In this document: piece after piece, positions 2,576-44,618 of the stretch
Numbering within the stretch: position 1 is the stretch's first letter
Layout of the letters: each line of letters starts with the position of its first letter
Assembly: GCA_036676295.1 (NCBI GenBank)
Contig: JAKFDE010000035.1
Span: 18,727-82,726 of the forward strand
Reading direction: 5' to 3'
Length of the DNA stretch: 64,000 nucleotides
DNA from: Bacteroidia bacterium
GTDB taxonomy: Bacteria > Bacteroidota > Bacteroidia > B-17B0 > Aurantibacillaceae
Notes under the pieces: generated by a model
Told to the model about the DNA's origin: nothing
Database searches by the model: none
The model's input: the letters and a program-made list of their open reading frames with translations, nothing else
Made by a program: the position numbers and the translations under genes

Positions 2576-4696
2576 TTATTTTTTGTACTGTTTAATTCCT
2601 TCATCTAACCATTTGATGTATTCCGGAATACTAGGATCGTAACCTCTGATGGTATGTAACATTTTTTCGTTCCCGTCTACTAACACATACAAAGGTTGTG
2701 TACTTTGTCCATACAAGGATTCTTCCATGTATTTGAATTTATCGCCAATATCAGTGATCTCACGCTCTTTGCCATACCATTGCACTTTCATGTAATCTTT
2801 AGGATCCAAACTACGTTTGTCGTCTACGTATAATGAAACTAATACCACATCGTTATTTAAACGTTTTGTTACTTCTGCATCAGGCCACACATAATCTTCT
2901 GTTTTACGGCAGTTAGCGCAAGCGTGTCCGGTAAAATCAATTAATAATGGTTTACCAACTTTTTTGGCATAAGCCAAAGCATGTTCGTAATCGTTTTTAA
3001 AATGCACAATTCCATTTTTATTTTCTTCCATGTACTGGCCAAATTCCGGATCTTTAGTAACAGTTGAATTGGCTGAAGACGTTGAATGTGAACCACCAAA
3101 TCCGTGTGGAGATTCAGAGTATTCTAATGGAGGTAAAATACCACTAAATAATTTTAAAGGAGCACCCCACAATCCTGGAATTAAATAAATGGTGACAAAG
3201 AATGCGGTAATAGCCACAAACATTCTTCCAACCGAAACGTGTTTTAGATCGCTATCGTGTGAGGTTTTAAATAACCCAATTAAATACATGCTTAGTAAAC
3301 CAAAAATCACGATCCATAAACCAATAAAAACTTCGCGGGTTAAGATTCCGGCTTGTACTACCAGATCAGCATTAGAAGCGAATTTTAGAGCCAGAGCCAA
3401 TTCTAAGAAACCAAGGGTTACTTTAACTGCATTTAACCATCCTCCCGATTGAGGTAAAGAGTTTAGCCAACCTGGGAAAGCTGCAAATATACCAAAAGGT
3501 AAAGCCAGGGCTAAAGAGAAACCAAACATTCCCCAAAATGGTCCGGAAATATTTCCGGTAGAAGAGGCTTCAACTAAAAGTGTTCCGATAATTGGTCCTG
3601 TACATGAAAAAGAAACCAAGGCTAATGTAAAGGCCATAAAGAAGATACCGATGTAACCACCTCTGTCGGCTTTAGCATCAATTTTATTAACGAAAGAGCT
3701 TGGTAAGGTTATTTCGAAAGCTCCTAAGAAAGACATGGCAAATACCAATAATAAAACAAAGAATGCTAAGTTGAACCATACATTTGTAGAGAGAGAATGC
3801 AGAGCACCGGCACCAAAAATTAATGTCACGCCTAATCCTAATCCAACATATAATACAATAATTGAAACGGCATATAATAAGGCATTTCTGATTCCCTGAG
3901 CTTTAGATTTACTTTGTTTGGTAAAGAAACTCACATTCATAGGAATCATTGGGAACACACATGGTGTTAAGAGAGCAGCTAAACCACCTATAAATCCTGC
4001 AAGAAAAATACCCCACCATGATCTTTTTTCAGTAGGCATTTTTTCAGGAACGGTACGACCTTCTTTAATTTTTTCAGTTGATGAAGAAGTATCTTTAAAT
4101 TGTTCTTTAGAGATCTGATCAGGACGCACTAAATTTAAAGCTGTTAAAATAGCTGACGTATCGCAGTTACAAGAATTTTCAGCTTCTGCAGAAACAACAG
4201 TTGTATTAGAAGCTGTGGCTGATTTTAAACAATTGGTAGTACCTTGTAATTTAAATTCAAAATTATCTGCCGGAGGGAAAATACATTTTTCTTCGGTACA
4301 GGCTTGCGCTTCGTATTTCCCTTTTATACTAACAGGTTTGTCAGTTAAGAGTTTAATACGTTGAGTAAAAGTAGCATTGTGTTTAAAGTATTGAACTTTC
4401 ATTTCAAATACTTTATCAAATTCTGTTAGAGGTTTACTTTCTGTGGGTTTACCTACCAACTCATAATCTTTTGATTTTATAAAAGTAAAAGAAGTGGGGT
4501 TAGGTCCATCTTCACCGGCTTTAATTAACGAATACATATGCCAAGGTTCGTCAATACTTACATTAAAAATTAAATCATACTCACAATCAGATATTTTTTT
4601 TGAGGAAAACTTCCAATGCATGGGTTGTTCCTGAGCTGAGATGAATGAAAAACTGGTAACGAATAATAAAACGAGCAGTGATAATTTCTTTAGCAT
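2576..4696 (-). CDS. dsbD: Thiol:disulfide interchange protein DsbD-like (N-terminal DsbD-alpha domain, polytopic membrane core, C-terminal thioredoxin fold)
   Basis: 706 aa. Signal peptide, multi-TM core (LTPCVFPMIP and SCTGPI motifs), and a C-terminal thioredoxin-like CANC (CxxC) motif. Confidence 0.85.
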   Translation of the reverse strand: MLKKLSLLVLLFVTSFSFISAQEQPMHWKFSSKKISDCEYDLIFNVSIDEPWHMYSLIKAGEDGPNPTSFTFIKSKDYELVGKPTESKPLTEFDKVFEMKVQYFKHNATFTQRIKLLTDKPVSIKGKYEAQACTEEKCIFPPADNFEFKLQGTTNCLKSATASNTTVVSAEAENSCNCDTSAILTALNLVRPDQISKEQFKDTSSSTEKIKEGRTVPEKMPTEKRSWWGIFLAGFIGGLAALLTPCVFPMIPMNVSFFTKQSKSKAQGIRNALLYAVSIIVLYVGLGLGVTLIFGAGALHSLSTNVWFNLAFFVLLLVFAMSFLGAFEITLPSSFVNKIDAKADRGGYIGIFFMAFTLALVSFSCTGPIIGTLLVEASSTGNISGPFWGMFGFSLALALPFGIFAAFPGWLNSLPQSGGWLNAVKVTLGFLELALALKFASNADLVVQAGILTREVFIGLWIVIFGLLSMYLIGLFKTSHDSDLKHVSVGRMFVAITAFFVTIYLIPGLWGAPLKLFSGILPPLEYSESPHGFGGSHSTSSANSTVTKDPEFGQYMEENKNGIVHFKNDYEHALAYAKKVGKPLLIDFTGHACANCRKTEDYVWPDAEVTKRLNNDVVLVSLYVDDKRSLDPKDYMKVQWYGKEREITDIGDKFKYMEESLYGQSTQPLYVLVDGNEKMLHTIRGYDPSIPEYIKWLDEGIKQYKK

Positions 4697-18518: not shown

Positions 18519-18998
18519 TTAATGTGCTGTTGGCATATTTTTAGAGTCAACAGTTGTAGGCACAATAATATTGGCTTTGATATAAATGATTTTTGTGCTT
18601 GGTTCGCAGTTTGTAACTATAGTTACTGATTTTTCAACTAAGCCTGATTTTCCTTCGCTGCTAAATACAACATTCACGGTTGCCTCTTCGCCCGGAGCAA
18701 TTGGTTTTTTGGGATATTCAGGAACAGTACAACCACAACTACCGCTAGCCGAAGAAATAATTAAATTAGTTCCTCCTGTGTTTTTAAATTTAAAACCGTA
18801 AGTTACTTTTTCACCTTGGGTAATACGCCCAAAATCATGAGTTTCCTCATCAAATTTAATATCAGGTAAGCTGGTGTTATTTTTACCATCAGCTGATTGT
18901 GTGTTCATTACATCATTTGTTGAAATTTCTTTACTTTCTTCTTTACAAGAAGTTGTAATGATTAAAACAGATGCAACCAATAAATAGATAGTTTTCAT
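18519..18998 (-). CDS. DUF1573-domain lipoprotein
   Basis: 159 aa. Lipobox TTSC. F.E..HDFG.I.QGE...F.F.NTG...L.I......CGCT pattern of DUF1573. Confidence 0.7.
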   Translation of the reverse strand: MKTIYLLVASVLIITTSCKEESKEISTNDVMNTQSADGKNNTSLPDIKFDEETHDFGRITQGEKVTYGFKFKNTGGTNLIISSASGSCGCTVPEYPKKPIAPGEEATVNVVFSSEGKSGLVEKSVTIVTNCEPSTKIIYIKANIIVPTTVDSKNMPTAH

Positions 18999-37745: not shown

Positions 37746-37877
37746 AATTTATAAAGAAGTGGCGAGAGAATAGGCTCATTGACCCACTGGCAACCAACTC
37801 AAAGTACAGATGTTACAATCAGTATTGGAAAACAGGTGCCAATTCCTACTCCGATGAAAAGCGGAGGAAAATAAATT
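37746..37877 (+). promoter_or_regulatory. SAM-I (S-box) riboswitch aptamer
   Basis: P1 AAUUUAU (37746-52) pairs with AUAAAUU (37871-77). ...GUGGCGAGAGAAUAGGCUCAUUGACCCACUGGCAACC...GGUGCCAAUUCC UACUCCGAUGAAAAGCGGAGGA reproduces the conserved GGCAACC / GGUGCCAAUUCC junctions and the P4 hairpin (CUCCG/CGGAG). Lies upstream of metX-hom. Confidence 0.8.
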
Positions 37878-37889
37878 AAAAACAAAAAA

Positions 37890-38006
37890 ATGAAACACAC
37901 AAAATCAAAAACAAACAACAAATTCAGTGTTCAAGGTGTAACCTGTAATTCAATTTCTGCTTTCTTCATGATGGCCTGTATGTGTTGCTATTGCTGCATG
38001 TGCTAA
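37890..38006 (+). CDS. Cys/Met-rich short ORF (38 aa), candidate met/cys leader peptide
   Basis: ATG is 13 nt after the riboswitch P1. MKHTKSKTNNKFSVQGVTCNSISAFFMMACMCCYCCMC*; 10 of the last 12 codons are Met or Cys. Below the ORF-track size cutoff. Confidence 0.55.
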   Translation: MKHTKSKTNNKFSVQGVTCNSISAFFMMACMCCYCCMC

Positions 38007-38132
38007 GCTAGTTTTCCCTATTGATCTTATCGGAAAATTTAACCTTGGCAAATCCAAGGCAGGTTTGATGTATTCTTTATTCAAGAATTAGTCAACCTCA
38101 ATTTTTTCAATCATCACTTAATTCAAATCATC

Positions 38133-38369
38133 ATGAAAACAAATAGAAATTTTAATACAACAGATATAACTACAAATAACTTGATCGGAGAAATTGGTCA
38201 CCGTCATTTTTTAGAATTGCAAGCTAATTTTGGTTTTGCACAAAGAGGAGGCGTTAAATTCCCGTTAGGTAATACAAATCATAATAAACGCTTGGCCAGT
38301 GATATCAATATTTTGAATTCACAAGAGCATAAACAATTAATTTTTTCGGAAGTTATTTTTAGTAATTAA
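38133..38369 (+). CDS. Hypothetical 78 aa protein (orphan ORF upstream of metX)
   Basis: ATG-initiated ORF ending 7 nt before metX. No recognisable motif, so it may not be coding. Confidence 0.3.
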   Translation: MKTNRNFNTTDITTNNLIGEIGHRHFLELQANFGFAQRGGVKFPLGNTNHNKRLASDINILNSQEHKQLIFSEVIFSN

Positions 38370-40682: not shown

Positions 40683-40748
40683 TTATTTTGTTTTAATTCC
40701 TACTGAATTAGTAGTATATTTGTTACATAATTGAAAAACGAATTGATT

Positions 40749-41210
40749 ATGTTACAAAAGAAAACAAAATATGCGATAAAAGCCTTACTGGCACTGGCAA
40801 AACAATACAAGGATAATAAACCTATGAGGATCTCAGAAATAGCGGAGACCGAAGGGATTCCCAGAAAATTCCTAGAAGCGATTATGCTAGATTTAAAACA
40901 TAATGGCATAGTAGGGAGTAAAATGGGATCAACGGGCGGTTATTATTTAACCAAACACCCGGAGGAAATTATGCTAAGTAATGTGATCCGGTTAACCGGA
41001 GGGCCAATAGCACTGCTGCCTTGTGTGAGTTTGAATTTTTATGAGCCCTGTGTTGAATGTGTGAGTGAGGAGATCTGTGGATTAAGAAATGTGATATTGG
41101 AAGTGAGGGAAGCGAGTATTAAGATCCTTTCAAAGACAAGTTTGTTGGATATTTTATTAAGAGAAAAAAAGTTAGAAAAAAAAGTTAAACCATTGAAAAC
41201 AAAAGGATAG
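40749..41210 (+). CDS. Rrf2-family transcriptional regulator with four-Cys cluster
   Basis: MLQKKTKYAIKALLALA wHTH N-terminus. C-x8-C-x2-C-x5-C (LPCVSLNFYEPCVECVSEEICG), as in Fe-S-binding Rrf2 proteins. The ORF-track start at 40731 is TTG, so ATG at 40749 is preferred. Confidence 0.8.
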   Translation: MLQKKTKYAIKALLALAKQYKDNKPMRISEIAETEGIPRKFLEAIMLDLKHNGIVGSKMGSTGGYYLTKHPEEIMLSNVIRLTGGPIALLPCVSLNFYEPCVECVSEEICGLRNVILEVREASIKILSKTSLLDILLREKKLEKKVKPLKTKG

Positions 41211-41265
41211 AATGATTTAATTCCTATTACTCCTATAGGATATATGTAAAATAAATCATTTTTTG

Positions 41266-41297
41266 TTTGGATAATAAAAAAACAATGCATTATTTTG
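41266..41297 (+). promoter_or_regulatory. Putative promoter of the sulfate-assimilation leader transcript
   Basis: TTTG (41266-41269), N20, TTATTTTG (41290-41297; one mismatch to TAnnTTTG), 13 nt before the leader ATG. Confidence 0.45.
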
Positions 41298-41310
41298 CAC
41301 ACGAAAAAAA

Positions 41311-41385
41311 ATGAAAAAGACGCCATTACATAAATTATTTTCTACAAAGCACATGATGTATTGTTGGATGCAACGTTGTTGTTAA
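41311..41385 (+). CDS. Met/Cys-rich leader peptide (24 aa) of the AKR-sir operon
   Basis: MKKTPLHKLFSTKHMMYCWMQRCC*; 6 of the last 10 codons are Met/Cys. An antiterminator/terminator pair follows directly. Confidence 0.65.
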   Translation: MKKTPLHKLFSTKHMMYCWMQRCC

Positions 41386-41412
41386 CGGAAGGATATTGTG
41401 TACAATATAAAA

Positions 41413-41441
41413 CCCCTCCGTTTGCACGGTGGGGTTTTTTT
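41413..41441 (+). terminator. Attenuator terminator upstream of the AKR-sir operon
   Basis: CCCCTCCG (41413-20), loop TTTGCA, CGGTGGGG (41427-34), then T7 (41435-41), 37 nt before the AKR ATG. The upstream CGGAAGG (41386-92) can instead pair with CCCTCCG (41414-20), enclosing an ATATT/AATAT mini-hairpin. That pairing is the candidate antiterminator. Confidence 0.8.
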
Positions 41442-41477
41442 ATAATCAAAAATTAGAAAATAGTTAAAACAGAAAAA

Positions 41478-42356
41478 ATGGAAAAAATTTATATCAGCGA
41501 AACAGGACCAGAAGTGTCCGCAGCCATCTACGGTTTTTGGAGATGGAACACTGTAGCTTTAGCAACAGAAAAAAAAGTTGAAGACATTATCAATTATAAT
41601 TTGGAATTAGGTGTAAACACCTTTGATCATAGCAATAATTACAGTAGTGGAAAAATCGAAGAATTATTTGGTAAGGTCATTTCAAAAAGTAACATTAACC
41701 GTGAGGATATTATTATTTCTACGAAATCAGGGATCAGAAACTTTTCGAACAAAAGTTCTAAAGGTGTTTATTACGATCTAAGCCCTGAACACATTACCAA
41801 AAGTATTGAAGAATCATTACAGCATTTAAAAACAGATTACATTGATATCTTTTTGTTAGAACATTACGATCCTTTGTATCAGGTTGAGGAAACTGCTTCG
41901 GCATTAATTAAATTATTACGCAGTGGCAAAGTAAAGCACATCGGTGTTTCTAACTTTAATGTCTTTCAACACCGTTTATTAGCCTCTCATTTAAATCAGC
42001 CAATTGTTACCAATCATATCGAATTGAATTTGTTGCAAAGTAGTGCTATTGATGATGGACGTTTGGATTTTATCAAAGAGCAATACAGTAAACCAATGGC
42101 CTTTGCTCCTTTAGCCGGTGGTCGTATTTTAAATGGTAAAGACAAGAAAGCGATCTCTGTTAGAAAAGCATTAACTGAAATTGCTAAAAATCATTCGATC
42201 AATGTAGAGCAAGCGGCGGTTGCATGGTTGTATAAACTAGGTGCTTTGCCAATTATTGGCAGTACGGATAAAAAACGTATTAAGAATGCGGCGAGCGCTT
42301 ACTCGGTTAATTTAAGTAAAGAAGAATGGTATCAATTGTATAACGCTGCAAAATAA
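41478..42356 (+). CDS. Aldo/keto reductase family oxidoreductase
   Basis: 292 aa. AKR (YdhF-like) pattern FDHSNNY, STKSG, DIFLLEH and HIGVSNF. Confidence 0.8.
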   Translation: MEKIYISETGPEVSAAIYGFWRWNTVALATEKKVEDIINYNLELGVNTFDHSNNYSSGKIEELFGKVISKSNINREDIIISTKSGIRNFSNKSSKGVYYDLSPEHITKSIEESLQHLKTDYIDIFLLEHYDPLYQVEETASALIKLLRSGKVKHIGVSNFNVFQHRLLASHLNQPIVTNHIELNLLQSSAIDDGRLDFIKEQYSKPMAFAPLAGGRILNGKDKKAISVRKALTEIAKNHSINVEQAAVAWLYKLGALPIIGSTDKKRIKNAASAYSVNLSKEEWYQLYNAAK

Positions 42357-42361
42357 TTTAT

Positions 42362-44488
42362 ATGCAAAGTTTTAGATCAGAATTAGAATTAGTCAATCAC
42401 TCAGGCAAAGCCTTGGTAGAAAAAGATATCATTGATCTGGATAAAAAGATCCGTGAATTTCGTGAAGGAAAAATTCATGAAGAAAAATTCAGAAGTCTTC
42501 GTTTAGCTCGTGGCGTTTATGGGCAAAGACAACAAGGTGTTCAGATGATCCGTATTAAATTACCATTTGGTAAAGTGAGTACTCAACAATTGTTGCGTAT
42601 TGCAGATATTAGTGATGAATATTCTAATGGAAATTTGCATTTAACCACTCGTCAGGATATTCAAATCCATCATGTGAGTTTGGATAGAACACCTGAGTTA
42701 TGGGCTAAGTTGGAACAAGAGGATATTACTTTACGTGAAGCTTGTGGTAATACGGTTCGTAATATAACGGCTTCTGCCGAAGCAGGTATCGACCCACATG
42801 AAGTATTTGATGTATCGCCTTATGCACATGCATTGTTTACTTATTTTTTGCGTAAACCATTTTGTCAGGAAATGGGAAGAAAGATCAAGATGGCTTTTTC
42901 TAATAATGATCAGGACACTGCTTTTACTTATATCCATGATTTGGGATTTATTCCAAAAATAAAAAATGGCGAAAGAGGATTTAAAGTTTTAGTGGGAGGT
43001 GGTTTAGGCGCTCAGCCATTTTTGGCGCAAACTGCTTTTGAATTTTTACATGAAGATAAACTAATTCCTTTTGTGGAAGCAACACTCAGAGTGTTTGATA
43101 GACATGGGGAAAGAGCCAGCAGACATAAAGCTCGCATCAAATATCTGATCAATAAAATTGGAATAGAAGAGTTTTTGAAATTGGTGAAAGAAGAAGAAAA
43201 AGCGTTGTTGGTAAAAGAATTTGAAATTGATACACGTTTAGAAAATGGTATAACCACTCTAAAAACAGTTTTACCAAAGGACTTGCCTGTTGTTAATGAA
43301 GATGATTATAAATTGTGGTTACAGACAAACACGTTTGAACAAAAACAAGCAGGGTTGTTTGGTGTGTATGTAAAAGTACAATTAGGAAATATTTCATCTG
43401 ATAAAACACGCAAGTTCGTAAAAGCGATTGCTAAGTACGCAGATACTGAAGATATACGTATTACGATCAATCAGGGCTTTTTATTAAAAAATATTGCTAA
43501 AGAAGAATTGCCATTTCTTTACAATGAATTGAATCGAATTAAGTTAGCTACACCTGGGTTTGATTCGGTAGCGGATATAACGGCTTGTCCTGGAACTGAT
43601 ACCTGTAATTTAGCTATTTCAAACAGCACCCATATTTCGGTGGCTTTAGAAAATGTGATCACGGAAGAATTCCCTGAATTGGTTCATAATCATGATATTA
43701 AAATCAAGATCAGTGGTTGTATGAATTCTTGCGGGCAACATGGGTTAGCTCAAATTGGCTTTCATGGCAGTTCTTTTAAAGTTGGTACAACTGTAGTTCC
43801 TGCTTTGCAAGTGTTATTGGGTGGTGGAACAGTAGGTAATGGTAAAGGTAGAATTTCGGAGAAAGTAATTAAAGTGGCCAGTAAACGTGCTCCGGATGTG
43901 TTAAGAAAATTATTTAATGATTTTGAAGCGAATGCGGTTGAAGGAGAATATTTTAATTCGTACTACGATAAAAAAGGGAAAGATTATTTCTATCAGTTAT
44001 TAAAACCAATAGGAGATAATAGTTCTTTAACTCCTGAAGAGTTAATTGATTGGGGACAGGAAGAGAAATTTGCGACAGCAATTGGAGTAGGAGAGTGTGC
44101 CGGTGTGGTGATCGATTTGGTAGCGACCTTGTTTTTTGAAGCGGAAGAAAAATTAGCCTGGAGTGCAGAAGCCTTTGAAAATAAACAATGGGGTGACAGT
44201 ATTTATTATTCTTATGCCGCTTTTATAAATGCTGCTAAGGGATTATTGTTAGATAAGCAAGTGCATGTGAATACACAACATGGAGTAATTAATGATTTTG
44301 ATAAAACATTTGTAGAATCAGGATTGATAAAATTAAAAGGTGAGTTTAAAGAATTGATCTTACAAATTAATAAACATGAGCCATCTATAGAGTTTGCTGA
44401 ATACTATTTCAACCAAGCAGAGCAGTTTTTAAATACCGTTAAAGTTTATAGGAATACTAATGTCACCCTGAGCGAAGTTGAAAGTTAA
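42362..44488 (+). CDS. sir: Assimilatory sulfite reductase (ferredoxin-type nitrite/sulfite reductase hemoprotein) with ~140 aa C-terminal extension
   Basis: 708 aa. Siroheme/4Fe-4S Cys motifs (ACPGTDTCNLA, SGCMNSCGQH) and duplicated NIR_SIR ferredoxin-like halves. Extra helical C-terminal domain. The last codons (NVTLSEVES) lie in a REP half-unit. Confidence 0.88.
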   Translation: MQSFRSELELVNHSGKALVEKDIIDLDKKIREFREGKIHEEKFRSLRLARGVYGQRQQGVQMIRIKLPFGKVSTQQLLRIADISDEYSNGNLHLTTRQDIQIHHVSLDRTPELWAKLEQEDITLREACGNTVRNITASAEAGIDPHEVFDVSPYAHALFTYFLRKPFCQEMGRKIKMAFSNNDQDTAFTYIHDLGFIPKIKNGERGFKVLVGGGLGAQPFLAQTAFEFLHEDKLIPFVEATLRVFDRHGERASRHKARIKYLINKIGIEEFLKLVKEEEKALLVKEFEIDTRLENGITTLKTVLPKDLPVVNEDDYKLWLQTNTFEQKQAGLFGVYVKVQLGNISSDKTRKFVKAIAKYADTEDIRITINQGFLLKNIAKEELPFLYNELNRIKLATPGFDSVADITACPGTDTCNLAISNSTHISVALENVITEEFPELVHNHDIKIKISGCMNSCGQHGLAQIGFHGSSFKVGTTVVPALQVLLGGGTVGNGKGRISEKVIKVASKRAPDVLRKLFNDFEANAVEGEYFNSYYDKKGKDYFYQLLKPIGDNSSLTPEELIDWGQEEKFATAIGVGECAGVVIDLVATLFFEAEEKLAWSAEAFENKQWGDSIYYSYAAFINAAKGLLLDKQVHVNTQHGVINDFDKTFVESGLIKLKGEFKELILQINKHEPSIEFAEYYFNQAEQFLNTVKVYRNTNVTLSEVES
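44462..44484. repeat. REP half-unit embedded in the 3' end of sir
   Basis: gtcaccctgagcgaagttgaaag closely matches gtcaccctgagcggagtcgaagg at 50468-50490. Confidence 0.6.
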
Positions 44489-44497
44489 TTATAAGTC

Positions 44498-44569
44498 ATG
44501 AAAAAAAGTAAATATATCTATATCAAGTTTGACAGTTGTTGTTGCTGTTGTGCTATCATAATATTTTAA
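44498..44569 (+). CDS. Penta-cysteine short ORF (23 aa), candidate cysteine-sensing leader peptide
   Basis: ATG is 9 nt after the sir stop. MKKSKYIYIKFDSCCCCCAIIIF*, with five consecutive Cys codons tgt tgt tgc tgt tgt at 44537-44551. Confidence 0.6.
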   Translation: MKKSKYIYIKFDSCCCCCAIIIF

Positions 44570-44618
44570 CTGTATGTGATGTTTCGGCTAATACAGTTGT
44601 ACTTAAAACCGAAACACC
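44570..44618 (+). promoter_or_regulatory. Mutually exclusive hairpins downstream of the poly-Cys sORF
   Basis: Hairpin A is CTGTAT (44570-75) with ATACAG (44591-96). Hairpin B is GTGATGTTTCGG (44576-87) with CCGAAACACC (44609-18). B's 5' arm lies in A's loop. No U-tract follows. The cobA ATG is at 44644. Confidence 0.4.

Follow-up and report, generated by a model that had tools for sequence, protein, structure and literature searches.

The 64,000-nucleotide stretch analysed here, which we call the window, covers positions 18,727 to 82,726 of contig JAKFDE010000035.1 from a Bacteroidia bacterium (assembly GCA_036676295.1) and carries a cluster of sulfur-assimilation genes in which a short open reading frame (sORF) rich in methionine and cysteine codons, followed by an intrinsic terminator, lies directly upstream of genes for an aldo/keto reductase (AKR) and a sulfite reductase hemoprotein (sir). 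We consider it likely, with a good deal of confidence, that this leader is a ribosome-mediated transcription attenuator, one that would report the charging of cysteine transfer RNA (tRNA-Cys) and of elongator tRNA-Met and gate the expression of AKR-sir. Attenuation had been proposed for this site by an earlier reading made from the letters of the window (hereafter the sequence-only reading), and the comparative evidence of conservation, codon bias and alternative pairings supports that proposal. The anatomy, conservation, codon bias, alternative pairings and statistics given below are computed.

All elements of the leader lie on the plus strand. The leader ORF (41311-41385) has 24 codons, MKKTPLHKLFSTKHMMYCWMQRCC and a stop, and six of its last ten codons specify Met or Cys; it opens in an A-rich context, AAAATGAAAAA, 13 nt past a conserved -7 box, and leaves 92 nt between itself and the AKR start, and homologous or analogous sORFs are found in 24 other genomes. 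As its sensing codons we propose the block M15 M16 Y17 C18 W19 M20 (ATG ATG TAT TGT TGG ATG, 41353-41370), on the basis of the conserved composition of this core block and of ribosome-mask folds, and two terminal Cys codons, Cys23 and Cys24 (41377-41382), precede the UAA stop codon at 41383-85. The segment CGGAAGG (41386-92) lies directly 3' of that stop codon and belongs to an antiterminator 5' arm, AACGGAAGG (41384-41392), which begins within the stop codon and pairs with 41414-41422 in the fold of the nascent RNA. Next comes an inner hairpin, AUAUUG-UGUA-CAAUAU (41393-41408, paired as 41393-98/41403-08), which is common to both alternative folds, has two pairs with compensatory changes and, more speculatively, might act as a pause hairpin. 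The intrinsic terminator (41410-41441, about -16 kcal/mol) consists of a 5' arm, AAACCCCTCCGT (41410-21), a TTGC loop, a 3' arm, ACGGTGGGGTTT, and a run of seven T (41435-41), its core being CCCCTCCG (41413-20), the loop and CGGTGGGG (41427-34), and the T-run ends 36 nt before the AKR start at 41478. A check of the sequence finds the promoter, the ORF, CGGAAGG, the inner hairpin and the terminator where the sequence-only reading had placed them. That reading also paired CGGAAGG with CCCTCCG; the competing arm stands, but seven uninterrupted pairs do not, because of an A-C mismatch, and the actual fold is AACGGA-(A)-GG/CC-(C)-UCCGUU, 41384-92/41414-22.

Short ORFs of this composition are rare by chance. 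We scanned both strands of the window for ATG-initiated sORFs of 8-70 aa, counted Met and Cys per 10 residues, and took the chance level from 100 dinucleotide-preserving shuffles of the window. With a threshold of at least 6 Met/Cys per 10 residues the window holds two sORFs against 0.01 expected, and with at least 5 per 10 it holds three against 0.6. All three are on the plus strand, within intergenic gaps of the sulfur cluster, in a window whose long ORFs contain 1.0% Cys, 1.9% Met and 0.9% Trp. A generic scan for terminators is non-discriminating, with 5 sites found and 4.9 expected in 10 kb.

The module is also widespread among related genomes. A sulfite reductase search, keeping one genome per species, yielded 80 loci (L001-L080), on each of which hom, Rrf2, AKR, sir and cobA were mapped; L001-L031 are from uncultured Bacteroidia metagenome-assembled genomes (MAGs) with Sir identities of 69-82%, and L032-L080, at 60-65%, are from Pedobacter, Arcicella, Emticicia and similar genera. 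The combination of a Met/Cys-rich sORF with a downstream terminator occurs in 24 further species-level genomes, and as a tandem pair in L043, and the window together with these 24 constitutes the family of 25 members to which the counts below refer. In relatives the module immediately precedes either AKR-sir or sir without AKR; in L018 and L019 the next gene is instead peroxiredoxin-like, and sir comes after it. The encoded peptides include MKKYSNHKTKFSNNMMCCWMMQRCC (L001), MKLNKLYTMCCCMHRCC (L015), MKTFKMYMCCMPYRFWRME (L008), MIGVVINIKLSKHMMCCMMCDPQRMW (L012), MKNNLNTVSFFVHTMMMWMCCCKYNNLLKGKLIRV (L014) and MKTKTMTKKAMCCVWCCMHPRR (L022). Across L001-L031 the operon strand carries 51 Met/Cys sORFs and its complement 5. 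In L032-L080 the element is absent within 4 kb of sir, L043 excepted; in that more distant genome (65% Sir identity) tandem Met/Cys sORFs, MKTTNHNINNICGCCCMMCI and MKSKIQIQKSTMCYMCCCCMRMRKGYVDR, each with a stop codon and its own strong terminator, occupy 3512-3980 upstream of sir. Short MQMWCCMM ORFs of Arcicella were considered as instances of the element and dismissed, as they sit inside cobA. Five of the MAG records (L005, L012, L021, L022, L023) are titled Chitinophaga pinensis, Akkermansia sp., Flavobacterium sp. or Hydrocarboniphaga daqingensis despite a Bacteroidia-type locus, and these titles are probably automated mislabels.

Conservation within the sORF is concentrated in its core block. 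Summed over the 25 family members, the core comprises 205 residues, of which 77 are Met, 76 Cys and 15 Trp, so that Met and Cys make up 153/205 (75%); the 410 residues outside it include 9 Met, 4 Cys and 4 Trp, or 13/410 (3%) Met and Cys. The sequence-only reading had offered retention of a Met/Cys sORF and terminator in relatives, with drift elsewhere, as a check on its proposal, and this is the pattern that the 24 further genomes display. The non-core parts of the peptides are rich in Lys, Asn and Thr and drift freely, with an unconserved N-terminus; peptide length ranges from 17 to 38 aa, the order of Met and Cys varies between subfamilies, and the Cys codons of the core are divided between TGT (43) and TGC (33). 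Judged from these sequences, it is codon identity, and not nucleotides, that is under conservation, as a sensor of tRNA charging would predict, and this is hard to square with an RNA sequence motif or a folded micropeptide.

The arrangement of the module among genomes suggests that it behaves as a unit. In L015, L022, L023 and L031 it is internal to an operon, where the stop codon of the preceding gene is followed at once by the sORF, which has no promoter of its own, and in these four genomes as well as L012 no Rrf2 gene lies upstream. Because promoterless, operon-internal copies exist, the sORF, arm and terminator form a portable module that is not the terminator of the Rrf2 gene.

Every member of the family (25/25) has a G+C-rich hairpin with a T-run after the sORF, 22 of them by a strict search and L003, L017 and L029 by a laxer one, and in those 22 the T-run begins 45-59 nt past the stop codon. 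Every sORF also has a G-rich stretch, located at its stop codon or a little upstream of it, that complements the inner portion of the terminator 5' arm, and subfamilies with different terminator arms carry matching antiterminator arms: ACGGAAGG faces CC-UCCGU in the window's own subgroup, GGCGGAUGG faces CCUUUCCGC in L008, GCUGAAGGG faces CCCUUCCGC in L014, GCGGAAG faces CUUCCGC in L030, UGCGAA faces UUCGCA in L003, and GUGUAUGGAC faces GUCCCUACAU in L022, the last two being clear examples of matched divergence. Using the inner arm as target and 1000 dinucleotide shuffles of the upstream segment in 15 subfamily representatives, we find complementarity better than the shuffle mean in 15/15, with p<0.05 in 9 and a Stouffer Z of about -8 that overstates independence because the genomes are related. 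This test replaced an earlier one with mononucleotide shuffles and a target that included the A-run, which had given a weak result (mean z -1.26, p<0.05 in 5/25). Cognate pairs of arm and terminator are better than non-cognate pairs (permutation p=0.018), an effect that is modest because most subfamilies share the CCYTYCCG arm. The competing antiterminator arm of the sequence-only reading thus finds support in complementarity beyond shuffles across all subfamilies represented.

RNAalifold, applied to nine close relatives with sequences that ended before the terminator 3' arm, recovers the ACGGA/UCCGU helix around the inner hairpin, together with the two compensatory pairs of that hairpin. With MAFFT, the 25 leaders could be brought into register only within the closest subgroup and at the terminator, and the alignment does not lend itself to counting covariation formally. 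In L001, L002 and L016 there is an extended antiterminator stem, GUUAACGGAA/CUCCGUUAA, which takes in the terminal Cys codons and the stop codon.

In the window itself the two alternative folds, which the sequence-only reading had suggested comparing, are both obtained. The nascent RNA from 41383 to 41424 folds as AACGGA.GG[AUAUUG-UGUA-CAAUAU]...CC.UCCGUU at -10.8 kcal/mol, and the terminator, at about -16 kcal/mol alone, becomes the minimum-energy fold once its 3' arm is present and is the dominant feature of the fold of the whole leader. We represented a translating ribosome by making a 29-nt footprint, an assumed size, unpairable. The antiterminator survives in the minimum-energy structure for A sites at codons 15, 16 and 18, and the terminator fold results for A sites at codons 20, 23, 24 and the stop codon, so that M15, M16 and C18 emerge as the productive stall sites. 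These folds reproduce the logic proposed in the sequence-only reading, a ribosome at the stop codon masking the arm and yielding the terminator and one stalled within codons 15-18 leaving the arm free. Cys23 and Cys24 lie too close to the arm in this model and are probably not productive stall sites, and their conservation is perhaps explained by their part in the extended antiterminator stem of the relatives.

From this anatomy we infer that the sORF is translated, that ribosomes stall on it and that transcription responds, in the following steps. Transcription would begin a few bases past the -7 box, near 41301-41305, and would probably also be subject to an Rrf2-family repressor bound at 41222-41240. 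A ribosome would initiate at the AUG at 41311, in its A-rich context and behind a very short 5' untranslated region (UTR). When Cys and Met are ample, the ribosome would reach the UAA at 41383-85, and its footprint would cover AACGGAAGG (41384-92); the emerging CCCCUCCGU would then pair with ACGGUGGGG, and the hairpin and its run of seven U would release RNA polymerase near 41441. When Cys-tRNA or Met-tRNA is scarce, the lead ribosome would stall at M15, M16 or C18 (41353-41364), leaving the arm free to capture CCUCCGUU (41414-22) around the inner hairpin, and, with no terminator formed, polymerase would read through into AKR-sir, whose start region is A-rich and unpaired in the folds.

Several points weigh against this attenuation reading, besides the relatedness of the genomes and the shared terminator arm that temper the statistics above. 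The outer pairs of the antiterminator are invariant in the closest subgroup and give no covariation signal. Since the terminator is the more stable of the two folds, switching has to be kinetic; in the trp attenuator the 2:3 and 3:4 helices have energies of similar magnitude. Stalling at Cys23 or Cys24 would, according to the mask folds, favour termination. We sought a trp-like 1:2 protector helix in the leader folds and found none that was convincing: the Met/Cys codons form a hairpin of their own, nothing sequesters the arm, and the untranslated nascent RNA folds into the antiterminator, so that an untranslated leader would default to read-through. The missing protector helix could be tolerable or even useful, since Met starvation also limits initiation. 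The 5' UTR is predicted to be only about 5-10 nt long, and efficient initiation on it is assumed. Finally, the core is enriched in Trp (TGG), including the codon at 41365-41367 of the window, with 15/205 residues (7%) against 4/410 (1%) elsewhere in the peptides and 0.9% in long ORFs, and this enrichment is left unexplained by the attenuation model.

If the ribosome is dispensed with altogether, the terminator could be a regulated or leaky stop under the control of, for example, a protein, a small RNA or a metabolite acting on the RNA, with the Met/Cys codons a by-product of the RNA sequence. The sequence conservation of the terminator arm (CCYTYCCG) and the G-rich arm across most subfamilies, and the limited covariation, fit such an arrangement. 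However, what is conserved is codon identity in one frame, with both Cys codons common, Met and Cys shuffled and the block varying in length; in every case this frame runs uninterrupted from an ATG in A-rich surroundings to a stop codon beside the arm. Rfam offers no matching family, and the region upstream of the arm shows no conserved structure resembling an aptamer. For these reasons we regard RNA-only control as quite unlikely. Less probable still is that the sORF encodes a functional Cys/Met-rich micropeptide, for example a metal- or redox-active one, whose small transcript ends at the hairpin while AKR-sir is expressed from another promoter. Small Cys-rich peptides do occur in bacteria, and the sORF is a conserved one whose start codon stands in a good context, but only its Met/Cys content is kept, with the N-terminus, the length and the spacing of the Cys residues all variable. 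Moreover, the genes that immediately follow the module on its strand are always sulfur-assimilation genes, even for the promoterless operon-internal copies; no -7/-33 motif lies between the T-run and the AKR start, and an arm complementary to the terminator would have no role.

The sORF might, on the other hand, be a sensor with a different output logic, acting for instance through Rho, through mRNA stability, or through stalling at the terminal Cys codons that promotes termination, in which case the competition between terminator and antiterminator would not decide the outcome. A ribosome stalled at Cys23-24 would indeed mask the arm, the two sister sORFs of the cluster lack T-run terminators and must therefore work in another way, and mycobacterial polycysteine sORFs act translationally (bioRxiv 10.1101/834739). 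Yet every family member has a strong terminator at a fixed distance past the stop codon, the complementarity of arm and terminator is conserved, and the first Cys and Met codons that a ribosome meets lie upstream at a productive distance, and we give this version about as little credence as control by RNA only. The suggestion that the sORF and the terminator of the upstream Rrf2 gene merely co-occur by chance draws on the stretch from the Rrf2 stop (41210) to the promoter, where we see no further terminator, so that Rrf2 transcripts may also end at 41441. It is effectively refuted by the shuffle expectation of 0.01 per window, by persistence of the module in the five genomes in which no Rrf2 gene precedes it, and by its conservation in 24 species. 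Ribosome-mediated attenuation is the reading that we retain.

Leader-peptide attenuation is classical for the trp, his, leu, thr, phe and ilv operons of enterobacteria. The leader described here resembles those attenuators in having a promoter-proximal sORF rich in codons for the pathway product, a terminator between it and the first structural gene, a competing helix built on the terminator 5' arm, and a stop codon adjoining the antiterminator arm; as in the thr and ilv attenuators, several amino acids would be sensed. It differs in its use of Met and Cys codons, in its target, sulfite reduction, in the lack of a 1:2 protector helix in our folds, and in its very short predicted 5' UTR, with no Shine-Dalgarno sequence expected in Bacteroidota. 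At Rfam gathering thresholds, only the SAM-I aptamer at 37746 matches, and no family corresponds to the leader; SAM-I (RF00162) has its sole match in the window at 37746-37877 and none in 41200-41480, and the leader has no T-box match either. With E values up to 10 across 38-50 kb, the only matches are sub-threshold and generic (Phe_leader, BSnc120 and rnk_pseudo), and neither Bacteroid-trp (RF01692) nor any other leader family is among them. Phe_leader (RF01859) scores 25.5 bits against a gathering score of 55 (E=1.1), which indicates no homology, and all three generic matches were set aside as reflecting the ATGAAAAA start and the terminator.

Within Bacteroidota, leaders of trp, his, ilv and aromatic operons have been predicted, and 5' transcribed regions have been mapped in Flavobacterium psychrophilum (PMC2864571, PMC9723704). 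Known examples are Bacteroid-trp (RF01692) and the His-rich hisG and Ile-rich ilvE leaders of F. psychrophilum (PMC9723704 supplement; PMC2864571), and the 5' transcribed region of hisG in that species begins about 14 nt before the leader ATG (PMC9723704 supplement). The leader in the window shares with these the phylum, the class of mechanism and the A-rich start context, and differs from them in amino acids and operons. For cysteine, mycobacterial polycysteine leaderless sORFs such as Ms5788A have been shown experimentally to act on translation (bioRxiv 10.1101/834739; Mol Microbiol 2020), and actinobacterial Cys-codon leader ORFs have been predicted, without terminators (PMC1262725). These systems and ours have in common an upstream sORF, Cys codons clustered near its 3' end, and sulfur or cysteine genes controlled by the supply of Cys. 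In contrast, the mycobacterial and actinobacterial leaders sequester a downstream Shine-Dalgarno sequence and have no intrinsic terminator, whereas the leader here has a strong terminator and an antiterminator, and its Met codons are as frequent as its Cys codons; the mycobacterial polycysteine sORFs are closer to a poly-Cys sORF at 44498 than to the 41311 leader.

The uORFC-8-2 motif of Rhodobacterales cysS, a tandem-Cys upstream ORF (uORF) with a terminator, has been read as ribosome-mediated attenuation by computational prediction (PMC8632094). It is like our leader in placing a terminator after a Cys-codon uORF, and unlike it in regulating a tRNA synthetase gene, in having two Cys codons only and no Met block, and in belonging to another phylum. 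Firmicutes SAM-I riboswitches and Cys/Met T-boxes likewise exert terminator/antiterminator control over sulfur amino-acid genes, with CymR-type Rrf2 repression as a further analogue, but they sense by interaction of RNA with ligand or tRNA, and the leader here would sense by means of a translating ribosome. In the searchable full-text literature, outside which subscription-only papers lie, we found no Met-codon leader and no Met/Cys leader in Bacteroidota, and Rfam likewise contains no Met-codon leader. The prior art named in the sequence-only reading, mycobacteria only, was incomplete, since other Actinobacteria (PMC1262725) and Rhodobacterales cysS (PMC8632094) also belong to it; for Bacteroidota that reading named none. 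What appears to be new is therefore classical attenuation with a new amino-acid specificity, target and phylum, the combination of Met/Cys codons with an intrinsic terminator appearing to be undescribed.

Upstream of the leader lies a Bacteroidota-type promoter (41265-41297, plus strand) with a -33 box TTTG (41266-69), a 20-nt spacer and a -7 box TTATTTTG (41290-97). Both boxes are kept in relatives, as TTTTTTCTTG ... TTAnTTTG, and they back the near-consensus promoter of the sequence-only reading. Free-standing modules in relatives show a constant order of palindrome, T-rich tract ending in TTG, spacer of about 20 nt and TTAnTTTG, the last ending 8-13 nt short of the sORF ATG, or 30 nt short of it in L008 and L011 (13 nt in the window), and it is this spacing that implies the very short 5' UTR and places the predicted transcription start near 41301-41305. 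Just upstream of the -33 box is a palindrome, AATTCCTA-N9-TAGGATAT (41219-41243, core 41222-41240), an exact TCCTA-N9-TAGGA that recurs in this position in most of the promoter-bearing relatives; we regard it as a probable Rrf2 operator. A pattern search finds a copy with one mismatch at 40698-40716 (plus strand), just upstream of the Rrf2-family regulator gene (40731-41210, plus strand; Pfam Rrf2 7.2e-33), which is possibly an autoregulatory operator for that gene. The Rrf2 protein, the probable partner of the operator at 41219-41243, exceeds the NCBIfam cutoff for rrf2_super and falls below those for CymR (66.6 vs 195 bits), IscR and NsrR.

Two further Met/Cys-type sORFs, on the plus strand of the same cluster, are associated with conserved RNA structures. 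The poly-Cys sORF B, MKKSKYIYIKFDSCCCCCAIIIF and a stop (44498-44569), recovered by the scan, starts 10 nt past the sir stop codon, upstream of cobA (44644), and is followed by two mutually exclusive helices, CTGTAT/ATACAG (44570-75/44591-96) and GTTTCGG/CCGAAAC (44581-87/44609-15), the whole feature spanning 44498-44615. It is kept at the same place in most close relatives as a peptide of the type MKK..YIYIK..CCCC(C)MIM, for example MKNYTQIKYCCCCCMIML and MKIIMCLHKACCCCCCCWLIHN. Its local hairpin has three compensatory pairs, and pairing in its long-range helix reaches 90% over 11 sequences and drops to 24-50% if the partner strand is shifted out of register; the 3' strand of this helix ends just before the cobA start in relatives. 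The stop codon of sORF B abuts this conserved two-state RNA switch and no T-run follows, so that sORF B looks, by analogy, like a translational Cys attenuator of mycobacterial type.

The second, sORF C, MKHTKSKTNNKFSVQGVTCNSISAFFMMACMCCYCCMC and a stop (37890-38006), is Met/Cys-rich, ends in FFMMACMCCYCCMC before its stop codon, and starts 13 nt past a SAM-I (S-adenosylmethionine, SAM) aptamer (37746-37877); two conserved hairpins, 38012-17/38032-37 and 38043-48/38054-59, follow without a T-run and complete a feature spanning 37746-38059. It lies upstream of a 78-aa ORF (38133-38369) and a metX-like gene; the 78-aa ORF has no Pfam or NCBIfam match, and an ORF occupies the same position in L006, L007 and L028. 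Pairs of aptamer and sORF C recur in L006 (146-406), L007 (143-397), L028 (142-397) and L024 (2711-2975), with the ATG 13-14 nt past the aptamer, 38-40 codons and a terminal Met/Cys run, and L015 has the same sORF C and upstream flank at the edge of its locus, with no aptamer called there by Rfam. In L024 the aptamer and sORF C stand directly in front of AKR-sir and replace the 41311-type leader (module A); in L006, L007 and L028 AKR-sir (AKR at 3120) is directly behind metX-hom under the SAM and sORF C leader, and module A is absent. Modules A and C (the latter being the aptamer and sORF C) are thus interchanged in front of AKR-sir across genomes. The SAM riboswitch may gate translation of the codon-sensing sORF C. 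The Salmonella mgtA leader combines a Mg2+ riboswitch with a proline-codon sORF, mgtL, and the feature at 37746-38006 would be analogous to it as a riboswitch and codon-sensing ORF within one mRNA leader; ligand and codons differ, and in the window the sORF lies 13 nt past the aptamer and both elements would report on the same pathway. We suggest, tentatively and with rather less confidence than we place in the AKR-sir attenuator, a lineage-wide sulfur codon-sensing network in which the leader ORFs at 41311 (AKR-sir), 44498 (cobA) and 37890 would control three transcription units.

The first genes that the 41311 leader would regulate encode the aldo/keto reductase (41478-42356; Pfam Aldo_ket_red 4.8e-51) and the sulfite reductase hemoprotein (42362-44488; Pfam NIR_SIR and NIR_SIR_ferr), which occupy 41478-44488 on the plus strand and lie 5 nt apart. 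Around them the sulfur cluster comprises the metX-like hydrolase, homoserine dehydrogenase (hom), the Rrf2 regulator, cobA (uroporphyrinogen methylase), a DUF2490 protein, a siroheme-synthase/TauE fusion, a TrxR-like flavoprotein, OsmC, a sulfhydrylase, cysH, cysD and cysN, as well as the SAM-I riboswitch. The sulfite reductase has a C-terminal extension of about 150 aa, unusual for Sir, with a weak HEPN match (PF05168, E 2.2e-5) at residues ~590-676.

If it operates as proposed, the AKR-sir leader would extend terminator/antiterminator leader-peptide attenuation to the sulfur amino acids, for which Cys-codon leaders have so far been translational (mycobacteria) or only predicted (other Actinobacteria and Rhodobacterales cysS). 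It would also show that sulfur assimilation, beside trp, his and ilv, is under ribosome-sensed attenuation in Bacteroidota, a phylum largely without Shine-Dalgarno-led initiation. Should the wider network prove true, it would include the first attenuator to sense elongator Met codons as well as a serial device leading from riboswitch to leader peptide. Being small and portable, with or without its own promoter, the module could be put to use as a Cys/Met-responsive genetic part for Bacteroidota, where few such tools exist. With its Rrf2 operator, its attenuator, its SAM riboswitch and two more Cys-rich sORFs, this one cluster would offer a compact setting in which to study how cells tell apart the signals of sulfide supply, Cys, Met and SAM.

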